From positions 6,976,001 to 7,040,000 of the forward strand of contig OZ240241.1 of NCBI GenBank assembly GCA_965198115.1: DNA of 64,000 bases, given 5' to 3'. Origin of the DNA: Candidatus Latescibacterota bacterium (lineage in GTDB: Bacteria; Latescibacterota; UBA2968). Shown piece by piece: positions 9,085 through 42,931 of the stretch. A model generated the notes under the pieces. The model was given only the letters and a program-made list of their open reading frames with translations. It ran no database searches and was not told the DNA's origin. The translations under genes and the position numbers were made by a program. Position 1 is the first letter of the stretch. Each line of letters opens with the position of its first letter.

Positions 9085-10050
9085 CTACCGATAGACTTTG
9101 ACCACAATCTGACCTCTGATGACGGTCGCCGATGTGATGTTGGACCCACCCCTTGCTTCGATCCAGAAGCGATAGTTGCCGGTTTCGACGTCCCTGAGCA
9201 ACCCGTAAGTCTGCACCGTCGTGCCGATAATGCCAGTTGATGGGAGCCCGGCTGCGATGGACCCTATGGGTCCCAGATCCACGTTGACCGGAGTGACCTG
9301 TTTGTAGCCCAGGCGAACCTCGAACGGAAAATTGGTGACCAGCTGGAAATACAGCTGGAATTCGAGGTCAACGAGTCCCTCTACATCGATGAACTGATCA
9401 AAGCCTACGGATTCGAACTCTGGGCCGAAGAAGACAACGTCGCCTTCCAGATCGTAGAAGATCGTGGTATCGAGCTGTGCAGACTGAGCAGGCTGTCCTG
9501 GGCCCACCCAGCGGCCTTCACTATCGAGTACAGCCGTGTCGCCAACCGAGAGACTGTCTACCGTTAGCAGTAAAGTTGTCAACGTGCCAGTGGCGTCCCA
9601 CGTGCCTCCTCCCCCGACTAGCTCGATCGATGACGGCGTAATCGTCGTGGCGGCGATATTGTCCGCTTCGCCGGACCGCATCGCATACGCCACGCTCACC
9701 ACACGCTGTCTGGGCAAGAGTTCGCCCGTCTCCGTTGCGAGGGAGAGGAAAAGGCTGTCTCGTTGGAAGACTCCTGCTGGGAAAGGTTCGAGGCTGCCAA
9801 GCAGGACGTTGAACACGCCGGCCGTGGCCGAAACGGGTTGTGATTCCTCCCATAAAGCCTCACCACCAGTCGATGCGGTATGAAAGCGGAAAGTGATCGT
9901 CAGAGTTTCTGGATTTCCGTCTGTCTCGGTGATTCGGCCCTGGTAATTCTCGGTGATTCGGCCCTGGTAATTAATGAGTTGCGGAACGTCCGCGGAGAGA
10001 GTGTGTGATCCGATTATCGCGGCGAAAATCAGGACGTAGATTCGATTCAT
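9085..10050 (-). CDS. Secreted hypothetical protein with 'VPQLINYQG' N-terminal domain
   Basis: Signal peptide; VPQLINYQGR...LWEE...GVFNVLLG...LLPRQ..SVAYA pattern of secreted fibre-like proteins; 8-aa tandem duplication. Confidence 0.75.
   Translation of the reverse strand: MNRIYVLIFAAIIGSHTLSADVPQLINYQGRITENYQGRITETDGNPETLTITFRFHTASTGGEALWEESQPVSATAGVFNVLLGSLEPFPAGVFQRDSLFLSLATETGELLPRQRVVSVAYAMRSGEADNIAATTITPSSIELVGGGGTWDATGTLTTLLLTVDSLSVGDTAVLDSEGRWVGPGQPAQSAQLDTTIFYDLEGDVVFFGPEFESVGFDQFIDVEGLVDLEFQLYFQLVTNFPFEVRLGYKQVTPVNVDLGPIGSIAAGLPSTGIIGTTVQTYGLLRDVETGNYRFWIEARGGSNITSATVIRGQIVVKVYR
9925..9972. repeat. Perfect 24-bp tandem duplication
   Basis: CTCGGTGATTCGGCCCTGGTAATT x2, encoding NYQGRITE twice. 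Confidence 0.95.
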
Positions 10051-10201: not shown

Positions 10202-10825
10202 ATGGAAGAATTGGCAGAATACACTGAAATCGTCGAGATGGAGGTCGTCGGGGTTGCCCCCGAACCCAACAGCAATCGCCCTCTGGTATGGCTGAAAGAC
10301 AAAGACCAGAAGGTGTTTCTGCCCATCTCCATCGGCAATTTTGAAGCGACCGCAATTTACATGGAAATCTACAACGAGCCGCCTCCTCGTCCAATCTGCT
10401 ACGATCTCATGCGGCAGGTGGTCGAGCAGGTGGGGGCCACCGTCGATCGCATTGTGATTAATGCCCTCAAGGACGGCACCTTCTTCGCGGAAATCACTGT
10501 TTCGGGCAGCGAAGGACGGTTCGTCATCGATTCGAGGCCTAGTGACGCGATCGCGCTTGCGCTACGCGTAGAAGCCCCTATCTTTGTCGATCCCCAGGTC
10601 ATCCACGACGCCGGACTGACGATCGAAGGTGAGGACGGGCCGGCGATCTGGGGCGAGGATCAACCGGAGTCGGAACGACCCGAAGCAGAATCACGCATCG
10701 AGGATATACCCGACGGAGATGCTTTGCTGGTCACGTTGAAAGGGAGATTGAAGGAGGCCGTTTCGAACGAGGACTACGAGGAAGCTGCGCGCCTCCGAGA
10801 TGAAATAGGGCGATTGACTGCGTGA
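10202..10825 (+). CDS. Bifunctional nuclease family (DUF151) protein with C-terminal UVR motif
   Basis: LPISIG.FEA.AI, PPRP, IDSRPSDAIALA; ends AV..EDYEEAARLRDEI. Confidence 0.9.
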   Translation: MEELAEYTEIVEMEVVGVAPEPNSNRPLVWLKDKDQKVFLPISIGNFEATAIYMEIYNEPPPRPICYDLMRQVVEQVGATVDRIVINALKDGTFFAEITVSGSEGRFVIDSRPSDAIALALRVEAPIFVDPQVIHDAGLTIEGEDGPAIWGEDQPESERPEAESRIEDIPDGDALLVTLKGRLKEAVSNEDYEEAARLRDEIGRLTA

Positions 10826-10952
10826 ATTTCATATTCACTTGCCCGCTGCCTTCGACGTGCCAGATTTCAGGGTGATAAGAAGCTGATTACGGGCGTTCTT
10901 AAAGCGTCTTTAACTCCATTTGTTTACGTGATTTGGATCACCGAGAATTCGC

Positions 10953-10981
10953 TTGACAGCCCATTTTCCTATTCGTATACT
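10953..10981 (+). promoter_or_regulatory. Near-consensus sigma70 promoter for the surface-protein locus
   Basis: TTGACA (10953-58), 17 nt, TATACT (10976-81); about 380 nt upstream of the ATG at 11369. Confidence 0.75.
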
Positions 10982-11368
10982 TTGGCTTGTCGCTTTGGCT
11001 ACGACTACAGGATTTTCCTGTAAGCTACAAAAAAACAACGGACTTATATCGGAATTCTGGCGAGTGGAAATGTTTCTCTTTAAGTTGGGGGTTAGGGCCT
11101 TGCCGGGGATAGACATTCAAATCGCGTAAAAACAGGTAGTTGTGCTACTGCGCAGCCGATATTTGTGGCCAAAATTAGTGAGATTTAAATAAACTTGGAG
11201 GGCAAAAAAACTTACGGAAGGGAGGGAGATGTTATCGTAAATGGGCTGTTGGCTTTCACGAGCCGGATGCCGGATTTTCGTGAAAGCGAGTATATAGTTC
11301 CGCAGTGACTCTATGGGCTTGAGCGTGAGTTTTTTGCCTTCGAGTTATCCACTTCAAGGAGAGGGTAA

Positions 11369-14300
11369 ATGACCTTCAAGAAAATTGGAAGCCTTTTACT
11401 GGGAGCCCTGATGGTTGTGGGGTTGTCCAGCGCCGTTTCTGCCCAGACGATTCTGGAAGACGGCGATGGCGTCCGACTACGTGTTACAAACCCCGATAAC
11501 GGCGGATTCGCCGGGATCGGCAAGACTGTCGAAGTCGAAGTGCATTACCTGACTTCGATTGCTCCAACCAATATTCATGTGGCCATCGTGACGGACACGA
11601 CCGGCATTGAGGCGGACGAGTTTTCGGGAGGGACCCTGAATGATGCCAACCTGTTCGACGGCGCGTTCTTCGAAGAGGCCGCGATAGTCGATGATGTCCT
11701 CACGATCACTGTGGCCGATGGCGACAATGTCGTTCCCGAGGCGGTCAGTGGTGAAACTTCGTTCAGCAAAATTGTGTTCAAGTTCGAGGTGGAGGCTTCG
11801 GTGGATGTGTCGAGCAGCTCGGCCACGCTGTCCGCCGTCGCATACGTTGACAACCTCATCGAAACCGAGGGACAGGTGTTCAGCAACCTTGACACCGATG
11901 TGCCGACCATCACGGGCGACACAGGTGGTACGACCTTCGGTTTCGTGGGTGATGGTGTACAATTCGGCATCGACGCCACCCGTCCGACGGGTGTCATCAC
12001 GAACGTCTTCATCGATGCTAACGTCGCGGATACCGACGGTGACGATATACTCGATGGTGCCGGTGCCAAGAAGAGCCAGATTTTCAATCCCGGTTGGCTA
12101 ACGGGGATTGTTGATAATAACTTGAATGACGATATAGTGCCGATCGCGAAAGTCGACGACTTCGGTGACCTCGCTGCCTTGATTGAGGACATTGATGTTT
12201 CGACGGCTATGAATGGCCGACTGGAACTTACAGGTGGAGAACCCGTTTTCGCGGACATACCCGTCACGGCAATTAACGTTGGCGACGATCTAACGGTCAG
12301 CTTCAGGGTGACGAACCCCCCGTCGGGAGCTACCGGCGTGGTCTACATCGCCGACCCAGTCGATGTCATGGCAGGTAACGCCGCTGACAGTTCGATCTTC
12401 ACCTTCACCTTCACCTTTCTCGAGCTACTTGAAGGCACGGTCCGTGATTCAATCACGGTCGACTCTGGTTTGGTCGATGTGCTCGCGGAGGGTGATCCCA
12501 AGTTCGTCGGGAATAACCGGCGCATTATGGCCGCCGCATTCCTGGCGGATCGAGCGGGTAACCTGAGCGGGGCAACCGCTGACGCGGATGATCCCTTAGC
12601 TGAGACCGACCCGAACATTCACGTGCTCGATCTCACGCCTGCGACGATCACGCCGGTGCGGCCGAAGACGGCGACGGGCGAACTTCCCGACAGCAGCCGG
12701 TTCACGGCACTGGCCAAGAGCAGCATCTCCATCGTCGACCTGGTGAACGGTACGACTTCTCCGGACGTCGACTTCAATCTCAATCCGTTCGAGTTGTCGG
12801 TCGATGAAGGACTCACGGACATTCAGGTGACCTTCGTGACCGGTGGTGACGAAATTTCCCTGTCGTACAAAGAGAGGAACAACGCCGGCGATCTCGACAA
12901 CGATGTTATCGAAGACGCAGGCCTGGATCCGGCGCTCATCGCCGCGACCGACGAGTTGGTGGACGGCAATGGCGACGGCGTGCCCGACGCTGCGGTCAAG
13001 TTCGACCTCAGCAGTCTGATCATCGACCCGGATGCCGACGGCGATCTCAAGCGCGAAACGAACAAACAGGGCGGTCACAAGGGGTCGTGGACGGTCACGG
13101 TCGTGGACAGCGCCGGTAACGTGACCCACGACACGCAAGCGGATATCTGGTTCGACGGCGTCGCTCCGGATACGATGGATGCGAACTACTTCCCGACGGA
13201 GGCCGGAGCGCCCAGGGATCAGGACACCGACGTTCCGACGATCACTTCGGAAACGTCGGCTGTCGTGCTTAGGCTGTCCGAGGCATTGGACTCCCTGGCT
13301 GTCCAGTATGTCGAGAACACGGCGGTTTCGCCCACTACGTCCCTCATTCGCGTTCCACCGGGCGATGTGAATTTGGCTATAACGGACTCGCCGATCACAC
13401 TGACGCTTTCCGATTCGCTCATAACTGGCGAAGAGTACAAGCTCCAGGTCTTCCAGCGCGATCTTGCGGGCAACGTCAGCATGACGGCCGCCCAGACTCT
13501 GTTGTACGACAACGAATTCCCGAACCCCGAAGCCAGCGAGTTCAAGGTCGTGCAGGACAACAAGGATGTGGTCGCCGGTCAGTCAATGACCATCACAGTC
13601 ACGGCTCTGGACAGTGCTATGACGGCGGATATAGGTTCTGAGGTTGTTGACGTCACGTACGGTACTGAGGCATTCATTCGCATCGAGGAAGTTGTTTCGG
13701 CGAAGAAAGCGGCTCACATCACCTATACGTTCGATGGTGACGGTGTGACCGACAACGAGGATGGTACGGCCACACTCGACACTGACAACTGGAACCTCGG
13801 TGTGCGAGATGTCGACATTGTTTCGACGGGAATCATCGAAGCTTTCATCGCGATCGTGGAGGACAAGACGGGTGACGATGTCAACTTCGATGGCCAGACG
13901 GCGGATACGCTGAGTGTCGAGGCTGCGGATTTCCGTGCCTTCGCAGTGAAGGTGCTGGAAGACGGTGTCGAAACGGATGAAGTTTCTGGTGAGTTCACCG
14001 TTTGGGTACATCCAACGGATATCCACGGCAACATGAGCGCCAAGCTGTTTGAAGAGGGAGTCGGCACGACGCCCGTGGAAGCGGATTCGCTGAAGTTGTT
14101 GGAAGCGAATATTAAACCGGCCAATGTGCTTGCGGAGATATTTGTCGAGTTATCGGCTAGCGTCGGCGATGTGGTTCCGCCGCCAGGCCCGCAAGCTTTG
14201 CCCAGAGAAGGCTACGCCTTCACCGCCACTGCTCCAGACCGCGCAGGTGAAGGTCTCGTGATTACGGTCCGTTCTGTCGATGGCGGCACGCTCGGTTTCA

Positions 14301-16348
14301 CGGATGATGTCAATGAAAAGTTCAAATTGGCTACCGGATCTAGTGAGTCACTCACCTTCACGCCGTTCGGTGAAGTTCCGCCGCCGCCGTTGCCCGACCT
14401 CGTAGCTCCGGCAACCCTGATCGTTCAGGACTACCTCGGAGCCGACGGGCTGGGCGATCAGGGTGGATTCGTGATCGTGTCTTACACTGCCTCTGAGGGT
14501 GCTGCGCGTCATCGCCTCTATCGCAAGATCCCGGTTCGGGCCGGACGGGACGAGAATGGCGACTTGGTTGCATTTGAGCCATTTGAGACACCGGTTGACA
14601 TGTGGGTGCCTTGGGCGTCGTTCGATGCTGCCGCTGATGATGACGGCATTGGACGTAGTGTCGTTCCAACGCTCGATAACGTCGCATCGAGCTGGGCCAT
14701 CACAGCAGAGCGTGGCGGTGCCTCTTCGGGGCAAACGGTTGCATCGAAGCGTGTGTTCACGAAGCAACTCGTTCAGAATATGGTCTCGTTCCTCGGCGTC
14801 GATCCGAACCGTGTCCTCTCAACAGAGGAACTCGGCGAGGTCTTTGCACCGTCAGAGGACTATGTGAAATCGATCATCGGTGACCAGAAGGACGTTCAGT
14901 TCACGGCCCTCGATATCGACTTTACAGCGCTGGTCGGTGGAGCCAACACGGTTCCGCAGTCCATCCGCACGCAGACCAGTCCGATTCAGTCTTCGGCCCG
15001 CACGGAAACAGATGCACCCGTGAAGGCCGTTGACAACCTGCCCCCCGCCGCTGTCGAAGGCGCTGCCGGTACATTCGACGGTGCCAACGTCAGCCTTGAG
15101 TGGCAGGTGTCGAGTGACGACCGCGTGGTGGGTAGCATGAGTTATCTCGGCCACTCGATTCCGATCGCGGGTGTGGATCGCTACGAAGTGTGGCGTGGCG
15201 AGAGTGTAGACGCGCTGGAACTCTATGACACCGTAGAGGCTGGCGAAACCACCTTCCTCGATCAGGAAGTCCCGGGCTTTTCGTCCGTGATTTACCGGAT
15301 CGATGCGGCTGATCTCGATAACGTCACACAGGGAACCGCGGTCACGATGGAACTCCTCACCTCGAGGATTCCCTACGAGACAGCTGATGGTCTCCCGGTG
15401 TATATCATCCTCGTGAATGGTGCGACGCCCTTGACGCAGGACTTCGAGGACTTCATTGCCTTCGCGGGTGCATTCCAGAAGTCGGCTGGTGAGTCAGGAT
15501 TCCTGTTCCAGGCCGATACCGACGACAGCGGCACGATCGACTTTACAGACTTCCTGGGCTTTGCCGGCGCCTTCCAGCGCGAGGCAGTTGCTCCGGCAGG
15601 GATGAAGGTCGTTCCCGCAATGCTGTTGCCCGGTGTGAACGACAACGTCGAGCTCGCACTCAGCTTGAGTGACAGCAAGGTACTCGCTGGTCAGACCGTG
15701 ACGGTAAACGTCGCCCTGGCCAACGCTGCCGCGCTCAACGGCTTCGGTTTCGAGCTGCTCTACGATGCGGATAAGTTTGAGTATGTCGAATCCGCAGCGG
15801 CCGAGCAGGATCTGCTGAAGTCCGGTGGTGCGGACACGCCGCTGTTCCTCGCTCACCAGGAAGAGGTCGGCCAGCTGATGATCGCCAACGCGATCGTCGA
15901 CGGCGCGCCAGTTTCGGGTGAGGGTGAGGTTGTGAGCCTGACGTTCAAGGTGCTTCAGGAGTTCGAGGAGAACGCACGGTTCGAGATCGCTGACGGTATC
16001 GTGTTCGATCACGAGCAGCTTTCGAACCCGGTCGTCGCCCTCGGCAGCCTGAGCGTCGAAAGCACCCCGACGGAGTTCGCGTTGCTGCAGAACTTCCCGA
16101 ACCCGTTCAACCCTGAAACCACGATCAAGTACAACCTCGCCGAAGGGACGAACGTCAGCCTCCGCATTTACAATGTGGTCGGTCAGGTCGTTCGCACGCT
16201 CGTCGCTGAGCCCCAGACGGCAGGTCGCTACACGGTCCGGTGGAACGGAACGGACGATCGAGGGGTGTCCGTATCGAGTGGGATCTACTTCTACGAACTC
16301 CGTAGCAGCGGATTCCAGGACGTCAAGAAGCTGATGCTGCTGAAGTAA
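11369..16348 (+). CDS. 1659-aa acidic secreted surface protein: Ig-like repeats, dockerin-like EF-hand pair, cohesin-like domain, FlgD-Ig/T9SS-type C-terminal domain
   Basis: SD AAGGAGAGG; signal peptide ending AVSA|Q; repeated D.AGN Ig-type motifs; DFEDFIAFAGAF...DTDDSGTIDFTDFLGFAGAF; VTVNVALANAAALNGFGFELLYDADKFEYV; LLQNFPNPFNPETTIKY...WNG.DD.G..VSSGIYFY...KLMLLK. Confidence 0.88.
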   Translation: MTFKKIGSLLLGALMVVGLSSAVSAQTILEDGDGVRLRVTNPDNGGFAGIGKTVEVEVHYLTSIAPTNIHVAIVTDTTGIEADEFSGGTLNDANLFDGAFFEEAAIVDDVLTITVADGDNVVPEAVSGETSFSKIVFKFEVEASVDVSSSSATLSAVAYVDNLIETEGQVFSNLDTDVPTITGDTGGTTFGFVGDGVQFGIDATRPTGVITNVFIDANVADTDGDDILDGAGAKKSQIFNPGWLTGIVDNNLNDDIVPIAKVDDFGDLAALIEDIDVSTAMNGRLELTGGEPVFADIPVTAINVGDDLTVSFRVTNPPSGATGVVYIADPVDVMAGNAADSSIFTFTFTFLELLEGTVRDSITVDSGLVDVLAEGDPKFVGNNRRIMAAAFLADRAGNLSGATADADDPLAETDPNIHVLDLTPATITPVRPKTATGELPDSSRFTALAKSSISIVDLVNGTTSPDVDFNLNPFELSVDEGLTDIQVTFVTGGDEISLSYKERNNAGDLDNDVIEDAGLDPALIAATDELVDGNGDGVPDAAVKFDLSSLIIDPDADGDLKRETNKQGGHKGSWTVTVVDSAGNVTHDTQADIWFDGVAPDTMDANYFPTEAGAPRDQDTDVPTITSETSAVVLRLSEALDSLAVQYVENTAVSPTTSLIRVPPGDVNLAITDSPITLTLSDSLITGEEYKLQVFQRDLAGNVSMTAAQTLLYDNEFPNPEASEFKVVQDNKDVVAGQSMTITVTALDSAMTADIGSEVVDVTYGTEAFIRIEEVVSAKKAAHITYTFDGDGVTDNEDGTATLDTDNWNLGVRDVDIVSTGIIEAFIAIVEDKTGDDVNFDGQTADTLSVEAADFRAFAVKVLEDGVETDEVSGEFTVWVHPTDIHGNMSAKLFEEGVGTTPVEADSLKLLEANIKPANVLAEIFVELSASVGDVVPPPGPQALPREGYAFTATAPDRAGEGLVITVRSVDGGTLGFTDDVNEKFKLATGSSESLTFTPFGEVPPPPLPDLVAPATLIVQDYLGADGLGDQGGFVIVSYTASEGAARHRLYRKIPVRAGRDENGDLVAFEPFETPVDMWVPWASFDAAADDDGIGRSVVPTLDNVASSWAITAERGGASSGQTVASKRVFTKQLVQNMVSFLGVDPNRVLSTEELGEVFAPSEDYVKSIIGDQKDVQFTALDIDFTALVGGANTVPQSIRTQTSPIQSSARTETDAPVKAVDNLPPAAVEGAAGTFDGANVSLEWQVSSDDRVVGSMSYLGHSIPIAGVDRYEVWRGESVDALELYDTVEAGETTFLDQEVPGFSSVIYRIDAADLDNVTQGTAVTMELLTSRIPYETADGLPVYIILVNGATPLTQDFEDFIAFAGAFQKSAGESGFLFQADTDDSGTIDFTDFLGFAGAFQREAVAPAGMKVVPAMLLPGVNDNVELALSLSDSKVLAGQTVTVNVALANAAALNGFGFELLYDADKFEYVESAAAEQDLLKSGGADTPLFLAHQEEVGQLMIANAIVDGAPVSGEGEVVSLTFKVLQEFEENARFEIADGIVFDHEQLSNPVVALGSLSVESTPTEFALLQNFPNPFNPETTIKYNLAEGTNVSLRIYNVVGQVVRTLVAEPQTAGRYTVRWNGTDDRGVSVSSGIYFYELRSSGFQDVKKLMLLK

Positions 16349-16364
16349 CAGCACCAGTATACGG

Positions 16365-16394
16365 AGCGGGAGCCAGAGTCATCTGGCTCCCGCT
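16365..16394 (+). other. 13-bp intergenic stem-loop without U-tract
   Basis: AGCGGGAGCCAGA-GTCA-TCTGGCTCCCGCT between the two surface-protein genes. Confidence 0.7.
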
Positions 16395-16426
16395 TCACAC
16401 AGCCAGGAAATAGAGAGCAAGTTTTA

Positions 16427-17866
16427 ATGGAAGGAACGAAGATGGTGAAGAAAGGGATGATGGCATTAGCCGTCCTGCTTTTCCTGGTGCACAGCGCGCA
16501 CGCGGGACCTAATGCGGCCGCTGTACCGTCACTGGACTTGACGGCCGGAAACTCAACGGACGATGGGGTGACGGTTGCGACTGATGTCGCCGAAGGCACG
16601 GCGATCCAGGTCGAGGTCTTCGCGACGGGGATCGCATCGACACTTCTGGGTATGAATCTCGAATTCACGGTGGATCAGGCCGTGGTCACCGCCGTTGGTT
16701 ATAGCGGCCCATTCGATATTCCACTCGTACAGGACACGAGTGTGGGCGCGGTGAGCTTTTCAGGCCCAGTCACGATTGATGCCGCAGGCTTCCTCGGAAC
16801 GGTGACTTTCGCTCCGGCGGCTGGCGTGACGACAAGCACTGAGTTCGAGATCACATTGGCGTCGATCGTTCTTGGCGATGCCAATCAAGTTCGAGATACA
16901 CTCTCGGTAACGGGCGTGACGTCGACGCTGACGTTTAACCAGGCGCCTCCGGGTCCTCTGGAACTCAGTGGCCCTGCCGATCCGATCGATACGATGGGAT
17001 CGGGAACGGCCGATATCGCCATTGCCAATCTGACGAGCGGCGACACGATCGAATGGACCGTGTCAGTCACGGGCGGTGCTGGCGCGGTTGCTGGAGTAAC
17101 AGGTCAGAGCGGATCGGCATCGATCGGCACAGAGTTTACGTTCAGTACCACGGCGAGCGCTGCGACAGAGACGATCACGCTCGAGGCTAGCGGAGCCAAC
17201 TCCACCGTAACGGTTTCGGCGTCGGTCAACGGCACGGCGATCGGCACCTTTGCGGTGGTGTTCAGCCAGCTGTCGGCGGCCGAGCTCTCCTCCTTTGGTG
17301 GTGAGATCGTCGAAGAGGCGGTCGTGCTCAACTGGACGACTGTTTCGCAGACGAACAACGCCGGTTGGCGTGTGCTTCGGAGTGAAGACGGCGTAACCTA
17401 TACGCCCGTCAGTGATCTCATTCCGGGCGCCGGGACGACGGACGCGACACTTCCTTACCAATTCCAGGATGAGGATGTGCCGGCTGTGGAGCTGATCTAC
17501 TATCGCCTCGAGCAGGTCGATCTGGACGGTCGCATTTCGCAGACCAGCCCGATCGAGGTCATTCTGGGCGCGCGTTTCCTCGACTTGCCGAGTGACTTCG
17601 GGACGAGCATCTACCCGAATCCGTTCAACCCCAGCACGACGATCGCCTACAACCTTCCGTCAGAGGCATCTGTTTCGATCGTGATTTACGACGCACTCGG
17701 CCAGGAAGTTCGCCGGCTGATCAGCGAGACGAAATCTGCTGGACGTTACACGATTCGGTGGGATGCGCGTGACAATCTTGGACGCGGCGTCGGTAGTGGC
17801 GTTTACATTGCCAAGGTCGAGGCCGGACAGTTTTCGGCTGCGCAGAAGATGCTGCTCCTGAAGTAA
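16427..17866 (+). CDS. Secreted protein with N-terminal cohesin-like domain and FlgD-Ig/T9SS-type C-terminal domain
   Basis: Signal peptide ending AHA|; IQVEVFATG...GMNLEFTVD; ELSSF...LNWTTVSQTNNAGWRVLRS...YYRLEQVDLDG pre-CTD module; YPNPFNPSTTI...WDARD..G..VGSGVY...KMLLLK. Confidence 0.85.
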   Translation: MEGTKMVKKGMMALAVLLFLVHSAHAGPNAAAVPSLDLTAGNSTDDGVTVATDVAEGTAIQVEVFATGIASTLLGMNLEFTVDQAVVTAVGYSGPFDIPLVQDTSVGAVSFSGPVTIDAAGFLGTVTFAPAAGVTTSTEFEITLASIVLGDANQVRDTLSVTGVTSTLTFNQAPPGPLELSGPADPIDTMGSGTADIAIANLTSGDTIEWTVSVTGGAGAVAGVTGQSGSASIGTEFTFSTTASAATETITLEASGANSTVTVSASVNGTAIGTFAVVFSQLSAAELSSFGGEIVEEAVVLNWTTVSQTNNAGWRVLRSEDGVTYTPVSDLIPGAGTTDATLPYQFQDEDVPAVELIYYRLEQVDLDGRISQTSPIEVILGARFLDLPSDFGTSIYPNPFNPSTTIAYNLPSEASVSIVIYDALGQEVRRLISETKSAGRYTIRWDARDNLGRGVGSGVYIAKVEAGQFSAAQKMLLLK

Positions 17867-17885
17867 CGGCAGGAAAGATTTTGGG

Positions 17886-17927
17886 AAAGAGGTCGCCCGC
17901 GCTTTTGGCAGGCGACCTCTTTTTTTT
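17886..17927 (+). terminator. Rho-independent terminator
   Basis: AAAGAGGTCGCC...GGCGACCTCTTT followed by a T-run. Confidence 0.85.
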
Positions 17928-18949
17928 GGCTCTATCCGGGTTTCTCAACGGTGAAACTATAGAATGACAAGGTCATAGATCGTTCCTTACGCTTGGTTGT
18001 GTCCGAGTTACTGCGCATCTCTGCCTCGACGCTGTCGGATCTCCTTCACCGATCCATCACGCGGCTTCGTGAAGGTCATCGTATCCGAGGGCTCAAAACC
18101 ATCGGGATCGACGAGATCTCCTACGCCAAGCGTCACAGGTACGCCACGCTCGTTTACGATCTGGACCGCTCCTGCGTGGTGTGGGTTGGCCGCGGCAGGG
18201 CGCGTAAAACGATCGATCGGTTCTTCACAGAGGCTCTCAGTCCCTACCGGAGATCCAAGATCGAGTGGGCCTGCTGCGACATGAGCGAAGCTTACATCGG
18301 AGCCATCCAGGAACACTGTCCGAATGCCAAGCTGGTCCTCGATCGCTTTCACATCGTCAAGGCTCTCAATGCCGCCGTTGACGAGGTCCGTAAGGACCAG
18401 TGGCGTGAAGCTGCCCCGGATGAGCGCAAAGCCATGAAGGGCCTCCGATGGCTCCTCTACCGGCACTCAGCGACACGCTCCAGAGGGGATACCCGGACAC
18501 TCAAAGCACTGGAGAAGGCGAACTACCGAATCTATAGAGCCTGGAGACTCAAGGACGAGTTCGAGCAGTTCTGGGAATACAAAGCGCCCTGGGCTGCCGA
18601 ACGCTTCCTGAAATGCTGGACGACGTCCGCACTCAGAAGTCGACTTGAACCCCTGCGAAAGTTCGTCAGGACCCTGCGACAGCACTTCTTCGGCGTCCTC
18701 GCATTCGTGAACACGCGTCTTACCAACGCCATCGCCGAAGGCCTCAACCGAATCGTCCAAATCGTCAAGAACCGAGCCAGCGGATTCCGCACACTCGACG
18801 CATTCAACGATATGATCTTCCTTACCGTCGGAGACATAAACATCCCTGAGCAGATTCCGAAGAGGTTCCGCACACTCTAACCGCGCCCCCATGCCAGGAA
18901 CCACGGCACCTTCACCCACTTCATCTCGTTGAGAGATCCGGATATAGCC
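17928..18949 (+). mobile_element. ISL3-family insertion sequence (internally deleted, 1022 bp)
   Basis: Terminal IRs GGCTCTATCCGGGTTTCTCAACG and (rc) GGCTATATCCGGATCTCTCAACG, 20/23 match; T8 on both sides (17920-27, 18950-57) as 8-bp TSD. Confidence 0.9.
17993..18880 (+). CDS. ISL3 transposase, N-terminally truncated
   Basis: IGIDEIS..K.H.Y.T, CCDMS..Y, DRFHIV, TNAIAEGLN..I...K..ASGFR. 295 aa, shorter than the usual ~400+ aa; no N-terminal Zn finger. Confidence 0.88.
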   Translation: MVVSELLRISASTLSDLLHRSITRLREGHRIRGLKTIGIDEISYAKRHRYATLVYDLDRSCVVWVGRGRARKTIDRFFTEALSPYRRSKIEWACCDMSEAYIGAIQEHCPNAKLVLDRFHIVKALNAAVDEVRKDQWREAAPDERKAMKGLRWLLYRHSATRSRGDTRTLKALEKANYRIYRAWRLKDEFEQFWEYKAPWAAERFLKCWTTSALRSRLEPLRKFVRTLRQHFFGVLAFVNTRLTNAIAEGLNRIVQIVKNRASGFRTLDAFNDMIFLTVGDINIPEQIPKRFRTL

Positions 18950-20540: not shown

Positions 20541-22265
20541 GTGGTCTCGATCAACCTGCAAGACGATCAGAATCAACAACGGCGCACGCCTGAGGATTTC
20601 CTTCAGGACTACGTCGACATGCAGCACACATTCGAGTCGCTCACGATCATCGATCAGATCCTTATGTCGATGGACGAGAAGGACCGACGACGGCCCCTTC
20701 TCTACCAGCTCCGGAGGCAATTGCAGGAAGATGAGATCACGTTCGAGGAGGCCCGTCGCGCGATCGTCGAGTTGGAGTCCGCGCTCGAAAAGGTCACGGC
20801 CCCGTCGAACCGCATCGGTATCCTTCTCGAGGCCGTCCAGAACGACGTTGCGTGTATTTCGGTGGGGGGCTCCGAATATTTCGCCAACGTCGACACTCGC
20901 ATCAACGACGACGATCTCAGGGTTGGAACGCGCGTGCTCGTGAACGAAGCCTTCGCGGTCGTGGGTGACCTGGGCTATCCGCAGGGCGGGCCGCTTGCCA
21001 AAGTCCTGGACGTGATGGACGATGGCAGGATTCGCGTTGGACAGGAACACGGCACCCAAACAACAATCCTCACGCGATCGACGGATCTGATCGATCAAGA
21101 GCTGAAGACGGGCGAGGAATTGCGGGTCGATCCAACTTTCCGTGTGGCGATCGAACGGATTCCGAACGCCGAGGTCAACGACTACTACCTGGAAGAGATT
21201 CCTCAACTGCCGTGGGACAAGATCGGTGGCCAGGACGAGGCCATCCAGGCCATCAAAGACACGATCGAGATTCCCGTGTTGCATCCCGATCTGTTCGAAC
21301 GGTTCCAGTACAGCACGCCGAGGGGCTTCCTGCTGTTTGGACCTCCCGGGTGCGGAAAGACGCGGATCGGAAAGGCCACAGCTTACAATTTGGCCAAGCA
21401 CATCAAGGAGGAGTCCAAGCTCTCGCTGAAGCAATGTTTCATGCACATCAAAGGTCCCGAGATTCTGAACATGTGGTTGGGCGAGTCCGAGCGCCAGGTG
21501 CGCGAGATCTTTGCGAGGGCACGCGAAAAGAGGAAAGAGGGCTATCTACCGGTCGTCTTCATCGATGAGGCAGAATCGATCCTGGGTACCCGCCGTGCCA
21601 TGCGATCGCACAGCATCAGCAACACCGTGGTCCCGATGTTTTGTGCAGAAATGGACGGGATCGAGTCGCTCCAGGACGTCGTTATCATCCTGGCTTCGAA
21701 TCGCCCCGATCTGATCGATCCGGCGATTCTGAGACCCGGGCGCGTGGACCGCAAGATCAAGGTGATCCGGCCCGATCAAGAGGGTGCAACCGAAATTCTG
21801 AAAATCTACTTGACGTCCGACCTGCCAATTTGCGAGGTCGATGTAACCGCCGAGGGCGGCCACACGCAGCCAGTGATCGACCGATACGTGAATGAGATGG
21901 TGTCCGAGATTTTCGCGCGTCGCGACGATACGCGCTTTCTCGAAGTGACCTTGCGGAGTGGACGCAAAGAGACGCTCCACCGTGGCGATTTGTGCAGTGG
22001 AGCCGTTCTAGAATCGATTGTTCGCCGGAGCAAGGAACTGGCGATCCTTAGGTCGATCGCCGCTGGCGAGGAAGAGGGCATCTCACACGACGACCTCATG
22101 GGGGCCATCGCGACCGAATACGCCGAGAACGAAATTTTCCCTCCGACGGACAACACCGAGGACTGGCTAAAGTTGCTGGACTACGATCCAGAAAACGTGG
22201 TGCGTGTGTCCCCGATCCGACCGCAAACGGACCGGCGGAGGTCGACGTCGCAGCGCGTGATCTGA
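20541..22265 (+). CDS. arc: Proteasome-associated AAA ATPase (ARC/Mpa-like)
   Basis: N-terminal coiled coil and OB region; GPPGCGKT; F.HIKGPEILN.WLGESERQ; FIDEAES; SNRPDLIDPAILRPGR.D.KI. Confidence 0.95.
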   Translation: MVSINLQDDQNQQRRTPEDFLQDYVDMQHTFESLTIIDQILMSMDEKDRRRPLLYQLRRQLQEDEITFEEARRAIVELESALEKVTAPSNRIGILLEAVQNDVACISVGGSEYFANVDTRINDDDLRVGTRVLVNEAFAVVGDLGYPQGGPLAKVLDVMDDGRIRVGQEHGTQTTILTRSTDLIDQELKTGEELRVDPTFRVAIERIPNAEVNDYYLEEIPQLPWDKIGGQDEAIQAIKDTIEIPVLHPDLFERFQYSTPRGFLLFGPPGCGKTRIGKATAYNLAKHIKEESKLSLKQCFMHIKGPEILNMWLGESERQVREIFARAREKRKEGYLPVVFIDEAESILGTRRAMRSHSISNTVVPMFCAEMDGIESLQDVVIILASNRPDLIDPAILRPGRVDRKIKVIRPDQEGATEILKIYLTSDLPICEVDVTAEGGHTQPVIDRYVNEMVSEIFARRDDTRFLEVTLRSGRKETLHRGDLCSGAVLESIVRRSKELAILRSIAAGEEEGISHDDLMGAIATEYAENEIFPPTDNTEDWLKLLDYDPENVVRVSPIRPQTDRRRSTSQRVI

Positions 22266-23821
22266 TGTCGATGGAGCGAATCTTCGGGATCGAGACGGAG
22301 TATGGCATTACGATCGACGGCGTCGACAAGATGGATGTCGTCGAGGAGTCGATGCAGCTCATTCGGTGTTACTTGCAGGGCGATTTCGTTCCGTTGTGGG
22401 ACTATCAGCTCGAGAATCCGCGAAAGGATGTGCGTGGTTTCGAAGTCGACGAGTTGCTGAACGACACGGATGAAAAGGTACATCTGCAGCAGGATCGACA
22501 GCGCAAGATCCCGTTCAAGGAACTCAAGAGCGACCTGGTCATCTACAATGGAGCGCGTTTCTACAACGACCATACGCATCCCGAGTATTCGACGGGCGAG
22601 TGCACGGGCCTGTTCGAGCTCGTGGCACACGATAAAGCCGGCGAGCGTATCGTCAGCATTTGCGCCGAACGACGCACCGAAGCGCTAAAGACCGGAGAGG
22701 TCCGCGTTTACAAGAACAACACGGATTTCGAAGGTCACAGCTATGGCTGTCACGAGAACTATCTTATGGGCCGCCAGGTGCCCTTCGATCGAATCGTGGC
22801 AGGGTTGCTCCCGTTTTTCGCGACGCGTCAGATTTTCGCGGGAGCAGGAAAGGTCGGGGAGGAGCGCGGCGACCGGGCGCCAATCTACCAGCTGTCACAA
22901 CGGTCCGAGTTTTTCGAGGTCATCGCGAGCGTCGACACGATGCACAAGCGGCCGCTCGTGAACACGCGGGACGAGCCGCACGCGGATTCGGAACGTTGGC
23001 GTCGACTCCACGTCATCATCGGCGATGCCAACATGTCGGAATTCGTGACGGCGTTGAAGGTGGGCACGACCGCGCTGGTCGTCGACCTGATCGAATCAGA
23101 TCGGCTGCCGGACTTCCAGCTGCGGGATCCGATAGCGGCCCTCCGAAACGTCGCGAAAGACCAGACTTACCAGTGGCTGGTCGAGGTGGAGGGTCACCCC
23201 AACCGGTTGGTATCCTCCGTCGACGTGCAACGGGAGTATCTGAACCTGGCGCAAGAAGATTACGCGGGTCGAGATGAGGAGACGGATTGGGTGCTTCGCT
23301 CGTGGGGAGAGATCCTCGACGCGCTCGAAGCGGATCCCCTTTCCCTCGTGGGCACGCTCGATTGGGTCACCAAAAAGTTTCTGATCGATTCGTTTTGCGA
23401 AGAAGAAGGCCTGTCGTGGGATAACCCCGATCATCTTTTCTGGATGCAAAGCCAGGATCTGGAGTATCATAATGTCGATCAAACACAAGGTCTCTACTAT
23501 CTCCTGGAATCCCAGGGACAATTCGTGAGGCTGGTCGACGACGGCGAAATTGCGACGGCGATGGCCGAGCCCCCGCGACGTACACGCGCATATTTTCGGG
23601 GTCGTTCGCTGGAGAAGTTCAGGGACGAGGTCAAATCGATCAATTGGGACCGGATCGTGTTCGGTTTGAACGGCAAGCACGAGTCGATCGACCTCAAACC
23701 GATGGTCGATTCGGAGCTGGCGCATCGATGTAACAACGTGTTGGATGCGTCCGAATCGGTCGCTGAGCTTTTTCACGGTTTGCAGAAAGTCGAAATGCAT
23801 CCTACCGCGGCGCTGACCTGA
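22265..23821 (+). CDS. dop: Dop-like depupylase/deamidase (PafA2)
   Basis: GIETEYG, Dop loop (W.Y..E.P..D.RGF), NGARFYNDHTHPEYST, KNNTD..G.SYGCHENY, RRLHVIIGDAN. Confidence 0.92.
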   Translation: MSMERIFGIETEYGITIDGVDKMDVVEESMQLIRCYLQGDFVPLWDYQLENPRKDVRGFEVDELLNDTDEKVHLQQDRQRKIPFKELKSDLVIYNGARFYNDHTHPEYSTGECTGLFELVAHDKAGERIVSICAERRTEALKTGEVRVYKNNTDFEGHSYGCHENYLMGRQVPFDRIVAGLLPFFATRQIFAGAGKVGEERGDRAPIYQLSQRSEFFEVIASVDTMHKRPLVNTRDEPHADSERWRRLHVIIGDANMSEFVTALKVGTTALVVDLIESDRLPDFQLRDPIAALRNVAKDQTYQWLVEVEGHPNRLVSSVDVQREYLNLAQEDYAGRDEETDWVLRSWGEILDALEADPLSLVGTLDWVTKKFLIDSFCEEEGLSWDNPDHLFWMQSQDLEYHNVDQTQGLYYLLESQGQFVRLVDDGEIATAMAEPPRRTRAYFRGRSLEKFRDEVKSINWDRIVFGLNGKHESIDLKPMVDSELAHRCNNVLDASESVAELFHGLQKVEMHPTAALT

Positions 23822-23851
23822 AGCCCGGAATGGACAATCACGGAGGCAACC

Positions 23852-24037
23852 ATGTCAAAGTGGATTGAATACGAAAGACGCACACGCCCGGTACCGGGCG
23901 AGGGGCCCGACGGTGATGACGAATCCGGCCCGACCCGGCCGAAGGTGGAGCGTCCAGACACGCGCGACCTGTTGAAGCGCATGCGTCGTGTCGATCCAAA
24001 CCAGGCGCGACGCTACCGGCAAAGGACAGGAGAATAA
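23852..24037 (+). CDS. ubact: Ubiquitin-like protein UBact
   Basis: SD GGAGG; 61 aa; LLKRMRRVDPNQARRYRQRTGE with the C-terminal R[T/S]G[E/Q] signature; occupies the pup position. Confidence 0.93.
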   Translation: MSKWIEYERRTRPVPGEGPDGDDESGPTRPKVERPDTRDLLKRMRRVDPNQARRYRQRTGE

Positions 24038-24044
24038 GCGCCGC

Positions 24045-24830
24045 ATGAGTGATGGCGGCGATTTTTTCGATCTCCTGAAGTCGGAGGGTTATCGGTTTCC
24101 GGCGAACGTCGTTTCGGGGGTCGAGCCCGATGCGAAGGGTCTGCCGTTCCAGCCGACCGAGGGGACGACGATCCTCGCCCTCCGTTATCGTGACGGCGTG
24201 GTGGTGGCCGGTGATCGGCGGGCGACGGCGGGCAACGCCGTTCTCTACGATCGCGCGGACAAGGTCATTTCGATCGATCGCAATTCTGTCATGGCGATTT
24301 CGGGTTCACCGGCCATGGCGTTCGAGATCGCCAGAATCCTCGAGCACTCCTTCCAGTATCACCGACGACGCCAGCTGCAGGAAATGAGCATGGAAGCAAA
24401 GCTCCGTCGTCTCTCCCTCCTGATTCGTGACAATTTACCCATGGCGGTCCAGGGAATCGGCGCGGTCATCCCGATCTTTGCCACCTACGATCTCCAGAGT
24501 GACGTCGGTCGCATTTACTTTTACGATGCCCTCGGCGCTCAGTTCGAGGTAGCGGATTTCGCGACGACGGGGTCGGGTGCCGCTGCGATTCGGGGAGCCA
24601 TGTATTACACGAACCGGTGGAGCGGAACGCCCTATCCCGAGCTGGGTCGTGACGATGCCGTCGGATTGTCACTGCGTCTTTTGTATACCGCGTCGGAATA
24701 CGATTCTGCGACCGGCCGTTACGAACGATCGACGGATATCCTCCCGACCGTCAAGACGATCACATCGGACGGCCAGGATGACATCGAGCCGGATGAACTT
24801 CGCGATCTTCACGCCCGGTTCCTGGACTGA
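24045..24830 (+). CDS. prcB: 20S proteasome beta subunit
   Basis: Propeptide, then G|TTILAL...AGDRRAT.G, DKV, TGSG, D.ATG. Confidence 0.95.
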   Translation: MSDGGDFFDLLKSEGYRFPANVVSGVEPDAKGLPFQPTEGTTILALRYRDGVVVAGDRRATAGNAVLYDRADKVISIDRNSVMAISGSPAMAFEIARILEHSFQYHRRRQLQEMSMEAKLRRLSLLIRDNLPMAVQGIGAVIPIFATYDLQSDVGRIYFYDALGAQFEVADFATTGSGAAAIRGAMYYTNRWSGTPYPELGRDDAVGLSLRLLYTASEYDSATGRYERSTDILPTVKTITSDGQDDIEPDELRDLHARFLD

Positions 24831-25621
24831 TGATGCTGCTGGACGAACCCTATCGCTTCGCCGAAGCGATCGCGAATCGGCGCGATTACATCGAGGATCA
24901 ATTGCGGGGTGGCAGTCCCGTGGTCGGTCTGGCGTTCGCCGACGGCTTGCTCGTCGTCACGCTACGCGGTGGCTCTCAAAAGCTGTTCGAGGCATACGAT
25001 CGTATCGGTCTCGGGTCCGTCGGTCATCCTACCGACATCGAAAAGCTTCGTCAGTCGGCGGTCGATCTCGCCCACGTGATCGGGTTCAACTACTCCGATA
25101 CGGATGTCACGCTTCAACAGATCGTACATTTCGGACTCGGGCCGGCCGTGAAGACCTCGTTTGACGACGTCATACGGTCCCCCTATATTGCGCGCGTTCT
25201 GCTGGCCGAGCTCGGATGGGCGGACGCTGAATCCTCGTTCTACACGGTCGACTACGACGGGACGTTCAATCGGTTCGAGGGTGCGGCTGCCATCGGCGGT
25301 CTGCCAGAATCCGATGGGATCATGCGGGACCACATGCTCGAAGCGAATCCCGCGAACCACTCGCTCGAGGCCGCTGTTTCACTCGCGCTCGAGGCCTGGG
25401 GAATCGGTCGGTGGGTTGGCGAGCAGGATAGCTTACCAGCCGACGATGAAGACTTGAAGTCCGCCTCCGCAGATGCCGATACGGCAGCGCCGCTGCGTGA
25501 TGGCTTGCAGACGCTGGAAATCGAAGCAGCAGTCTTAGACCCGTCCTTGACGGGGAAATCCAAGTTTCGCCACGTAAAGGCAGAGGAAATCGAATCTGTC
25601 CTTGCGTCCATAAAGGGGTAG
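24830..25621 (+). CDS. prcA: 20S proteasome alpha subunit
   Basis: EPY...RRDY...GSPVV, KLFE.YDRI...G...D, EAAVLD...FR; no catalytic Thr. Confidence 0.92.
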   Translation: MMLLDEPYRFAEAIANRRDYIEDQLRGGSPVVGLAFADGLLVVTLRGGSQKLFEAYDRIGLGSVGHPTDIEKLRQSAVDLAHVIGFNYSDTDVTLQQIVHFGLGPAVKTSFDDVIRSPYIARVLLAELGWADAESSFYTVDYDGTFNRFEGAAAIGGLPESDGIMRDHMLEANPANHSLEAAVSLALEAWGIGRWVGEQDSLPADDEDLKSASADADTAAPLRDGLQTLEIEAAVLDPSLTGKSKFRHVKAEEIESVLASIKG

Positions 25622-25650
25622 TGGTCGAACCAGCCCCTCGTCCACATTTC

Positions 25651-25677
25651 GCCGGGCCTTGCGAGGTCTGGTTTTTT
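25651..25677 (+). terminator. Putative intrinsic terminator between prcA and pafA
   Basis: GCCGGGCCT-TGCG-AGGTCTGGT (G:U-rich stem) followed by a T-run. Confidence 0.5.
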
Positions 25678-25689
25678 GTTTGATTGCCC

Positions 25690-42888: not shown

Positions 42889-42916
42889 TGACCAATGACA
42901 GGTGACCAGTGACAAA
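42889..42916 (+). repeat. Four heptamers TGAC(C/A)RR
   Basis: TGACCAA TGACAGG TGACCAG TGACAAA just after the DMT stop. Confidence 0.7.
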
Positions 42917-42931
42917 AGTGAAAGCTCTGCA

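Follow-up and report, generated by a model that had tools for sequence, protein, structure and literature searches.

Organisation of the p1-p2 locus

The window, a stretch of 64,000 nucleotides from a Candidatus Latescibacterota genome, contains two neighbouring genes, p1 and p2, bounded by a promoter and an intrinsic terminator (Table 1). The long acidic protein singled out by the initial annotation is real and corresponds to p1; the suspicion that the lineage lies outside the Bacteroidota was also correct, as it is an FCB lineage with a homologue named Candidatus Latescibacterota. Promoter sites matching 11-12 of 12 positions are found 258-463 nt before p1 in 16 of 19 loci (12/12 in 11), and the 8.4-Mb genome holds 61 such sites. 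The leader implied by the promoter position folds at -122 kcal/mol, against -103+/-6 kcal/mol for mononucleotide shuffles; Rfam gave no match across 10700-18100. The hairpin between the two genes recurs in 19/19 relatives' loci (z -3.6 to -7.9 vs mononucleotide shuffles), with its position kept and its sequence not; it likely acts as a partial terminator or stabiliser, with p1 made in excess over p2.

p1 and p2 are adjacent in all 19 relatives fetched. Based on promoter, hairpin and conserved adjacency, we suggest that p1 is likely a major surface protein and p2 likely its minor partner, which would be present at a lower level past the hairpin. The acidic, Cys-free composition of p1 and its variable N-terminus before a conserved tail point the same way, making p1 a candidate major surface protein for this uncultured order. 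Its codon bias, at only the 77th percentile of a genome that is itself weakly biased, does not speak for very high abundance.

Table 1. Features of the p1-p2 locus (window positions) and the stand-alone cohesin-CTD gene (position in genome G000, contig C1).
Feature	Position	Strand	Remarks
sigma70 promoter	10953..10981	+	near-consensus, 11/12; 387 nt upstream of p1
Long 5' leader	10982..11368	+	inferred from promoter position
p1 ORF	11369-16348	+	1659 aa, pI 4.05, Cys-free
p1 Sec signal peptide	11369..11443	+	judged by inspection and conservation; Ala25 invariant
p1 passenger	11444..15373	+	tandem Ig/FN3-like beta-sandwiches; AF2 and fold searches
p1 dockerin, type-II-like	15401..15580	+	both Phe/Ala-rich helices kept
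p1 dockerin Ca loop 1	15416-15451	+	degenerate
p1 dockerin Ca loop 2	15515-15550	+	canonical
p1 dockerin-cohesin linker	15581..15634	+	candidate processing site; Lys1413 invariant
p1 class A (pre-CTD) cohesin	15635..16054	+	PF00963 and PDB cohesin matches
p1 type A T9SS CTD	16067..16345	+	TIGR04183 36.5 bits (cut-off 23); PF13860/PF18962 passed
15-bp stem-loop between p1 and p2	16363..16396	+	z -5.9
p2 ORF	16427-17866	+	479 aa; called gene begins at M6, 16442
p2 signal peptide	16442..16504	+	probable start M6
p2 cohesin-fold domain, class B	16505..16945	+	variable; AF2 and fold comparison
p2 Ig-like domain and conserved FN3 domain	16952..17581	+	FN3 ends in invariant Gly-Ala-Arg directly before CTD
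p2 type A T9SS CTD	17594..17863	+	TIGR04183 45.8 bits (cut-off 23); PF13860/PF18962 passed
Intrinsic terminator ending the operon	17885..17928	+	z -3.0
Stand-alone SP-cohesin-CTD gene	G000:C1:1278184-1279026		signal peptide, one cohesin, CTD only

Domain structure of p1 and p2

In line with the initial annotation, no catalytic domain was recognised in p1 or p2: Pfam/NCBIfam scans of both returned the CTD and a sub-threshold Big_13 match and nothing else, and the AF2 model of p1 residues 26-1210 is a row of Ig/FN3 sandwiches with pLDDT 74. An enzyme reading was dropped on the family and fold searches. Foldseek searches with the whole p1 and p2 models gave only generic multi-Ig matches (TM at most 0.26). 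The N-terminal part of the passenger varies strongly between orthologues (19-27% identity), while the tail is conserved. A scan of genome contigs with a p1 segment gave no match, and a scan with the p1 alignment gave mostly CTD matches in other FCB phyla. The Bacteroidota O-glycosylation motif occurs 386 times in the p1 family against 197 expected; the window's own p1 has 10 against 10.1 expected, i.e. no enrichment.

The tail of p1 combines a dockerin, a cohesin and a CTD. The family profile matches the PDB dockerins 2y3n_B (E 1.4e-6), 4wi0_B, 4u3s_B, 5g5d_B and 2b59_B and the cohesins 2ozn_A, 1tyj_A, 2y3n_A and 5g5d_A, which we take to be type II; 2y3n_B, 4wi0_B and 4u3s_B are the best matches for the genome-wide dockerin profile as well. 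The EF-hand pair read from the sequence earlier is thus a dockerin, but not an intact pair: loop 1 lacks the Asp pattern at positions 1/3/5, with similar erosion in 24 aligned orthologues, and of the two intact Ca-binding loop-helix repeats that define a type II dockerin p1 has loop 2 alone. The short linker originally noted (APAGMKVVP) is likewise present; the linker varies except for Lys1413 (15605-15607), which is invariant in 24/24 orthologues. The proposed cohesin was confirmed by PF00963 (15659-16018; 40.4 bits, cut-off 24.1), a match missed by the whole-protein Pfam scan, and with 60% mean identity it is the most conserved part outside the CTD. A predicted complex of p1 dockerin (1336-1410) and cohesin (1419-1566) with Ca scored 0.34, 0.17 and 0.10 against a mark of 0.32; its controls did not fold, and we do not count it as evidence.

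p2 does begin with a cohesin-like domain, as had been thought: the best matches of the AF2 model of residues 26-173 are cohesins (2vo8_A, Z 11.7, rmsd 2.8 over 125 residues), with pilin domains scoring Z 9.4-9.6. p2 may be the adaptor or cap first suggested, but with 31% mean identity, compared to 60% for the p1 cohesin, its domain belongs to a different, variable class. In relatives this domain also stands before the dockerin in many CTD-less proteins encoded next to the stand-alone cohesin-CTD gene described below. Both genes end in the type of CTD that was claimed for them, although the YPNP motif applies to p2 only and p1 has FPNP.

Secretion machinery

Both proteins have the traits of type A T9SS cargo, with a signal peptide and a type A CTD in a genome that encodes SprA and PorV. 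The search proposed earlier for sprA and porV homologues was positive: SprA scores 645 bits and is present in 21/21 genomes, and eight PorV-family genes exceed the cut-off. T9SS is known to export folded and very large cargo (PMC9251779), and we suggest that p1 and p2 would fold in the periplasm and then leave via SprA-PorV. GldM (0/13), GldN (0/1) and GldL (0/5) gave no match and GldK only sub-cut-off FGE-type matches, in searches whose positive controls were also silent. A C25-CTD protein resembles PorU (292 bits vs cut-off 420), with His and Cys intact, and has a weakly PorZ-like neighbour (38 vs 260 bits). P. gingivalis PorU has a preference for small residues at P1 and does not favour Lys (PMC5445135), a point against processing at Lys1413; for the C25 peptidase of this genome, the alignment did not clearly place the S1 residue.

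Extra copies of a stand-alone cohesin-CTD gene adjoin dockerin genes

The p1 tail is a genome-wide module, with eight dockerin-cohesin junctions in G000, also on unrelated passengers. Class A cohesins in G000 are preceded by a dockerin or a signal peptide, and in G004, G011, G014 and G022 they number two only, that of p1 and that of the stand-alone SP-cohesin-CTD protein. The latter's cohesin is homologous to that of p1 (25% identity, E 6e-14). The stand-alone protein is found at 42% identity or more in 39/40 relatives (one match is a contig-edge fragment; G019 has a p1-type match only), and its conservation exceeds that of the p1 passenger.

We left the initial set of loci around this gene out of the counts because it had partly been picked with dockerin matches in view, and redid the test with controls on 20 new copies: all those in G029, G030, G033 and G039, plus the two of G027's five not fetched earlier. 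The four primary copies (hem/galU locus) have no dockerin neighbour. The 16 extra copies are spread over several separate clades; a CTD-less dockerin ORF lies no more than 750 bp from 15 of them, the sole miss being a frameshifted copy. Arbitrary 15-kb windows contained any dockerin gene in 1/10 cases, and windows around other CTD genes in 4/10, with 1/10 within 1 kb (Fisher 3e-5 and 5e-3, both overstated by the kinship of the genomes). Gene neighbourhood is a sign of coupling, not of where binding occurs, and the genomes are kin.

These data bear on the view, to which we give little credence, that the cohesin fold serves only as a spacer in front of the CTD and that the dockerin is just a Ca-binding fold with which it does not interact, with the genes clustering as surface-protein islands. 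The degenerate first Ca loop of p1 and the FN3 domain in the same pre-CTD position in p2 would suit it, as would the modest enrichment of dockerin genes near PorV and CTD genes in general (11/36 vs 4.7 expected; 4/10 control windows). It does not sit well with the retention of a protein consisting of signal peptide, cohesin and CTD only, nor with the placement of the G000 class A cohesins, and dockerin genes lie next to duplicates of the stand-alone gene much more frequently than next to other CTD genes.

Dockerins outnumber CTDs 4-9-fold in five near-complete genomes (dockerin/CTD matches 59/10, 42/10, 61/7, 64/16 and 95/23), and most CTD-less dockerins keep both Ca loops. By a heuristic, 25/30 dockerin proteins from the stand-alone gene's loci have a signal-peptide-like N-terminus and none a lipobox; in G000, 11/27 CTD-less dockerin ORFs passed, many resembling frameshift fragments. 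The 15 such locus proteins scanned are adhesin-like (CARDB, LRR, YWTD, He_PIG, FG-GAP, WD40, S8) and up to 2277 aa long; neither CTD nor autotransporter families were listed for them. Neither GH nor CBM3 was listed in 40 dockerin, cohesin or CTD proteins of G000 or in 15 from relatives; a cellulosome reading was dropped, as p1 and p2 each carry a single cohesin and no GH/CBM3 cargo was found.

A proposed two-part secretion signal

Because the stand-alone gene adjoins CTD-less dockerin genes, we suggest that the cohesin-CTD likely binds dockerin proteins and would export them. We see an even chance that the cohesin-CTD serves as a T9SS carrier for which the dockerin is the tag, with p1 as the fused form of the two and binding putative. 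The carrier would bind CTD-less dockerin proteins in the periplasm, take them along through SprA, and may afterwards keep them on the surface. p1 would have its carrier built in, and a possible nick at the Lys linker would leave passenger and dockerin clipped to the cohesin-CTD; the earlier idea of a passenger held in this way across a possibly cleaved linker fits both the invariant Lys and the stand-alone gene. In its full form, the proposal is a two-part type IX signal, in which a 60-residue dockerin tag on 40-100 surface proteins is recognised by a cohesin-CTD carrier that passes through SprA, in a T9SS possibly without the PorLM motor, with S-layer-like p1 as the fused, Lys-cleavable version; this we advance tentatively, as slightly short of an even bet.

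The carrier-dockerin gene coupling would be explained equally well if the cohesin-CTD were an anchor only, as in SdbA-type anchoring, so that both it and p1 were secreted and fixed to the outer membrane while the dockerin proteins left by another route and then docked. This is also how Ca. Stygibacter has been modelled (PMC8542988), and the PorU-like peptidase with its PorZ-like neighbour would be in keeping with it. However, 40-100 Sec-type proteins in each genome would then need a second way out, and this counts against it because we found no T2SS/T4P platform (PF00482, 0/41 genomes; control 13/14), no autotransporter or two-partner domains in 55 proteins scanned, and no lipoboxes; one lone secretin is encoded. 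Moreover, the in-cis anchor of p1 would duplicate the CTD-based attachment. We regard the anchor-only arrangement as unlikely.

The initial annotation suggested a head-to-tail lattice, in which each p1 would use its dockerin to hold the cohesin of a neighbouring p1, giving a polymer or S-layer with p2 as a cap. Both modules do occur within one likely abundant protein, and the high conservation of the cohesin would be expected. We know of no cohesin or dockerin in TfsA and TfsB of T. forsythia, which the two-gene CTD pair recalls: these large T9SS cargo proteins, whose genes bear consecutive numbers, form a surface layer (PMC5445135). No family-model match connects them to p1 and p2, for which a lattice would be putative. 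One dockerin and one cohesin per chain, a plug and a socket separated by 18 residues near the anchor, would give a linear chain at most, and an S-layer fold was not prominent in the p1 fold search (best row 4uid_B, Z 8.3, rank 46). The lattice is disfavoured by the presence of the p1-type tail on unrelated passengers and by the cohesin-CTD half standing alone beside CTD-less dockerin genes, and we consider it improbable.

If the two-part signal is true, prediction of T9SS secretomes changes, as CTD searches would miss most surface proteins of this order, and cohesin-dockerin pairs gain a transport role beyond assembly. It would also explain how CTD-less dockerin proteins exit in diderm 'cellulosome-like' systems, and provide T9SS hosts with a generic display tag, N- or C-terminal.

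Comparison with known systems

In SdbA-type anchoring, a protein with a single cohesin and a domain that sorts it to the cell envelope takes up dockerin-tagged proteins. The clostridial type II X-dockerin/SdbA pairs (PDB 2b59, 2y3n, 4u3s) are the closest solved dockerins and cohesins; here, in contrast, there is a T9SS CTD instead of SLH, an outer membrane to cross, Phe/Ala-rich helices and no glycoside hydrolase cargo found. ORF2375 of Archaeoglobus fulgidus also contains a cohesin. Its dockerin strongly binds the cohesin of the consecutively numbered ORF2376 in a non-cellulosomal setting (PMC9705933). A. fulgidus is an archaeal monoderm without T9SS, whereas p2 has a variable cohesin-fold domain with putative binding.

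For Ca. Stygibacter (Cloacimonadota), Williams et al. (2021) proposed a CTD-bearing cohesin scaffoldin; the system of this diderm, likewise inferred from genomes only, shares proteins that start with a signal peptide and end in a dockerin, and a cohesin protein with a CTD (PMC8542988). Its scaffoldin is a single 3,755-aa, multi-cohesin, CBM-bearing protein with GH and peptidase cargo (PMC8542988). The present genomes instead have a minimal SP-Coh-CTD gene with a single cohesin, whose duplicates lie next to dockerin genes, and a tail in which Doc, Lys linker, Coh and CTD are fused; most of the cargo resembles adhesins. The planctosome, with dockerin and cohesin in one adaptor chain (PMC6461901), and Chlorobium Cag_2037/Cag_2038 (bioRxiv 10.64898/2026.03.19.712371) are likewise non-cellulosomal and diderm, but use a lamin-tail anchor or T1SS export, not T9SS; the accessible parts of these two sources describe no carrier gene.

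In the literature searched, we found no description of dockerin-cohesin systems in Latescibacterota, although earlier work may mention such modules, and none of piggy-back T9SS export or of carrier-dockerin gene coupling; term searches of PMC4454575, PMC11557425 and PMC7323717 gave zero matches. T9SS cargo is held to require its own CTD (PMC12618676; PMC9251779). In the Tat hitchhiker and peroxisomal piggyback routes, subunits without a signal are taken across a membrane by a partner that has one (PMC9251779), as is proposed here; those routes use other translocons and fixed enzyme partners, whereas our proposal has a dedicated carrier and a generic tag shared by 40-100 proteins.

Architecture of p1 and p2

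Both open reading frames of the initial annotation are real. The first, p1, encodes a 1659-residue protein of pI 4.05 with zero cysteines (signal peptide, Ig/FN3 passenger, dockerin, Lys linker, cohesin and CTD, the T9SS C-terminal sorting domain), and p2 is the next gene. The sorting domains ascribed to both are of type A and each score above the TIGR04183 cut-off, and the p1 cohesin passes PF00963 (40.4 bits). A profile built from 24 p1 homologues matches solved dockerins and cohesins at the expected positions, the best matches being type II entries. The p1 dockerin is upheld, but as an EF-hand pair it is incomplete: both helices are retained, while calcium loop 1 is eroded in all 24 aligned rows.

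The AF2 model of p2 (pLDDT 73) bears out the predicted opening cohesin-like domain, residues 26-173 folding as a cohesin (Z 11.7 and rmsd 2.8, with Z 9.4-9.6 for pilin domains), followed by Ig, FN3 and CTD. That of p1 (residues 26-1210, pLDDT 74) consists of serial Ig/FN3 sandwiches, and a fold search with it matched no catalytic fold, in agreement with the lack of a catalytic domain noted earlier. One FN3 domain of p1 holds a conserved helical insertion starting with an invariant Lys-Arg, and another basic site lies near residue 780; both are possible further processing sites.

Coordinates of the features discussed (window positions unless a contig or locus is named; G000 is the genome containing the window and C1 its contig).
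Feature	Position	Strand	Content
Secreted protein	9085-10050	-	
p1	11369-16348		
Helical insertion in p1	14741-14975		residues ~1125-1200
p2	to 17866		
ISL3-family transposase	17993-18880		
Pup-proteasome cluster	20541-27162		ARC-type ATPase, two Pup-ligase-family genes, proteasome subunit
Lhr-type helicase	42902-44587 and 44049-47369		overlapping ORFs
Putative carrier gene	G000:C1:1278184-1279026		
ISL3-transposase-like ORF	G000:C1:1285394	antisense	
Secretin gene (L159)	G000:C1:3328112-3330223		
C25-CTD peptidase cluster (L158)	G000:C1:4353936-4370733		
Small family f2 proteins	L209:6839-7873; L168:13181-13609; L180; L181; L182		

Conservation of the p1-p2 locus

The p1 passenger is matched in 33 of the 41 genomes of the order, and 20 regions from 19 of these 33 were taken for locus comparison (the 20th is a paralogue cut at the edge). 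The locus is syntenic: a p2 orthologue immediately follows a p1-family gene in 19/19 genomes, usually with a bifunctional-nuclease gene on one side and a Gfo oxidoreductase on the other. In ten of the 19, the locus has two p1 copies. Identity among 17 p1 orthologues is 19-27% in the N-terminal passenger, 52% in the dockerin, 60% in the cohesin and 79% in the CTD; the p2 cohesin-fold domain reaches only 31%. One p1-homologue cluster includes a member that NCBI names Candidatus Latescibacterota, and most of the closest clusters in the Atlas belong to that phylum. A tandem p1 pair on a contig labelled Rhodothermaceae (L019, CAZCYQ010000066.1) has a cohesin near-identical to that of genus g4 of this order, and the contig is likely mis-binned.

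A sigma70 site scoring 11-12 of 12 lies 258-463 nt 5' of p1 in 16/19 loci (sites scoring that high total 61 in G000), a strong hairpin lies 3' of the p1 stop in the window and in all 19 relatives' loci, and p2 has a terminator downstream. We infer that these traits are consistent with p1 being an abundant surface protein and p2 its minor partner, while the codon bias of p1 (77th percentile) counts against high abundance. The Bacteroidota glycosylation motif occurs 386 times in the p1 family against 197 expected, and 10 times in the window's p1 against 10.1. In our view p1 is very probably T9SS cargo and quite likely the major surface protein; that it is a true crystalline S-layer is rather doubtful. 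Giants of 2450 and more than 2636 aa in the p1 family and of 1912 aa for p2 (loci L113 (G036), L116 (G013) and L104 (G014)) point to modular passenger growth.

Dockerins, cohesins and sorting domains

G000 is a single 8.4-Mb contig with numerous frameshifted ORFs, in which iterated profiles find dockerins in 54 ORFs (51 at 30 bits or more), cohesins in 20 and CTDs in 22, with dockerin and CTD together in only seven. The tail of p1 recurs as a module across the genome. Dockerin matches per genome range from 23 to at least 103 in the order versus 0-28 elsewhere in the phylum, and CTD matches from 7 to 23 in five near-complete genomes; most dockerin proteins therefore lack a CTD. Those of G000 bear NHL, Kelch, LRR, BNR, FG-GAP, CARDB, FN3, S8, M10 or M28 domains; the scan, which covered 40 G000 proteins, listed no glycoside hydrolase among them. 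The cohesins split into class A, which precedes the CTD, and internal classes. With a dockerin and a cohesin in one chain, p1 could also assemble head-to-tail into a lattice; we regard this as improbable.

Each of the eight G000 dockerin-cohesin junctions has a linker containing Lys or Arg, and linker Lys/Arg content is 15.6% versus 5.3% in passengers. In p1, Lys1413 is invariant (24/24) and the preceding residue is small in all 27 rows parsed by pattern, of 48; the site is a candidate cut site. P. gingivalis PorU favours small P1 residues rather than Lys (PMC5445135).

In the small f2 proteins, a CTD-like domain stands mid-chain or N-terminally, in one case preceding a dockerin. Short cohesin-CTD and dockerin-cohesin-CTD look-alikes in the ESM Atlas are found also in Fidelibacterota, Zixibacteria, Eisenbacteria, Gemmatimonadota and Bacteroidota (one cluster is viral), and by this likeness the system may extend beyond the order.

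A stand-alone cohesin-CTD gene as putative carrier

One G000 gene, the putative carrier (below, the carrier), encodes a signal peptide, a class A cohesin homologous to that of p1 and a CTD, and nothing else. It has a match of at least 42% identity in 39/40 relatives; the same query, run at E 1e-20 on 41 genomes from other orders or groups, gave zero matches. Four relatives (G004, G011, G014, G022) have two class A cohesins each, those of p1 and the carrier, for 42-84 dockerins.

In a first set of loci, extra carrier copies (those other than the primary copy at the hem/galU locus) adjoin CTD-less dockerin genes; since this set was picked partly with hindsight, the neighbourhood test was repeated on 20 new loci, namely all copies in G029, G030, G033 and G039 and two of the five in G027. 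There, 0/4 primary copies had a dockerin neighbour, while a CTD-less dockerin ORF lay within 750 bp of 15/16 extra copies, the lone miss being a frameshifted copy. As controls, arbitrary windows held a dockerin gene in 1/10 cases, and other CTD genes had one within 15 kb in 4/10 and within 1 kb in 1/10. Fisher values for this adjacency are overstated because the genomes are kin; the extra copies are distributed over several separate clades.

By a heuristic, 25 of the 30 dockerin proteins encoded at carrier loci start with a signal-peptide-like segment, and a lipobox is seen in none of them. A domain scan of 15, the largest of 2277 aa, showed adhesin-like proteins and listed neither a CTD nor an autotransporter family. 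Many carrier-locus dockerin proteins open with a p2-type cohesin-fold domain directly ahead of the dockerin, which ties this domain of p2 to the carrier-dockerin system.

Export machinery and proposed mechanism

The T9SS route proposed for p1 has counterparts in the genome: SprA is found in G000 and in 21/21 genomes searched, and eight PorV-family genes exceed the cut-off in G000. A PorU-like C25-CTD peptidase of 1966 aa has His and Cys in place but scores under the PorU cut-off. Its cluster also contains a propeller-CTD protein with a weak PorZ match, an NHL protein with a frameshifted dockerin after it, and a PorV-family barrel that bears an additional fused domain. Searches for GldL, GldM and GldN gave no match, with positive controls equally silent. 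The T2SS/T4P platform (PF00482) was found in 0/41 genomes (controls positive in 13/14), and G000, which lacks it, has a sole secretin gene.

Beyond the observed architecture, export genes, synteny and carrier-dockerin gene coupling, we suggest that class A cohesins would bind the dockerin, so that CTD-less dockerin proteins would meet the carrier in the periplasm and then pass through SprA, with p1 as a fused form whose built-in carrier lies behind a possibly cleavable Lys linker. As these proteins have Sec signals and extracellular domains, and a T2SS is lacking, this would be their simplest exit; SprA passes folded and very large cargo (PMC9251779). We give this scheme as a whole an even chance, and export by hitchhiking on the carrier a little less than that. 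Alternatively, the carrier could be a surface anchor only, with dockerin proteins exported by another route, which we think unlikely; that the modules form a non-binding spacer we consider highly unlikely.

A CTD-equipped non-cellulosomal cohesin-dockerin system is of an already known kind. Diderm cohesin-dockerin sets have been published for Ca. Stygibacter, whose scaffoldin bears a CTD (PMC8542988), for the planctosome (PMC6461901) and for Chlorobium Cag_2037/2038 (bioRxiv 10.64898/2026.03.19.712371). The A. fulgidus ORF2375/2376 pair resembles p1/p2 (PMC9705933). A literature search with most subscription journals outside its coverage found no minimal carrier gene, carrier duplication beside CTD-less dockerin genes or piggy-back export. 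The significance of p1 and p2 is as a way in to a proposed order-wide tag-and-carrier system.

Other features of the window

An ISL3-family transposase is inserted directly past the p2 terminator and is not there in a same-genus relative (L097); an antisense ORF elsewhere on the contig resembles it. In close relatives, the Pup-proteasome cluster shows partial synteny with p1-p2. The Lhr-type helicase is broken across two ORFs, among many apparent assembly frameshifts. Finally, a secreted protein, syntenic in several relatives, gives a weak match of 33 bits (cut-off 60) to the Bdellovibrio MAT fibre N-terminal model; close to its N-terminus, a short internal segment is duplicated in frame.
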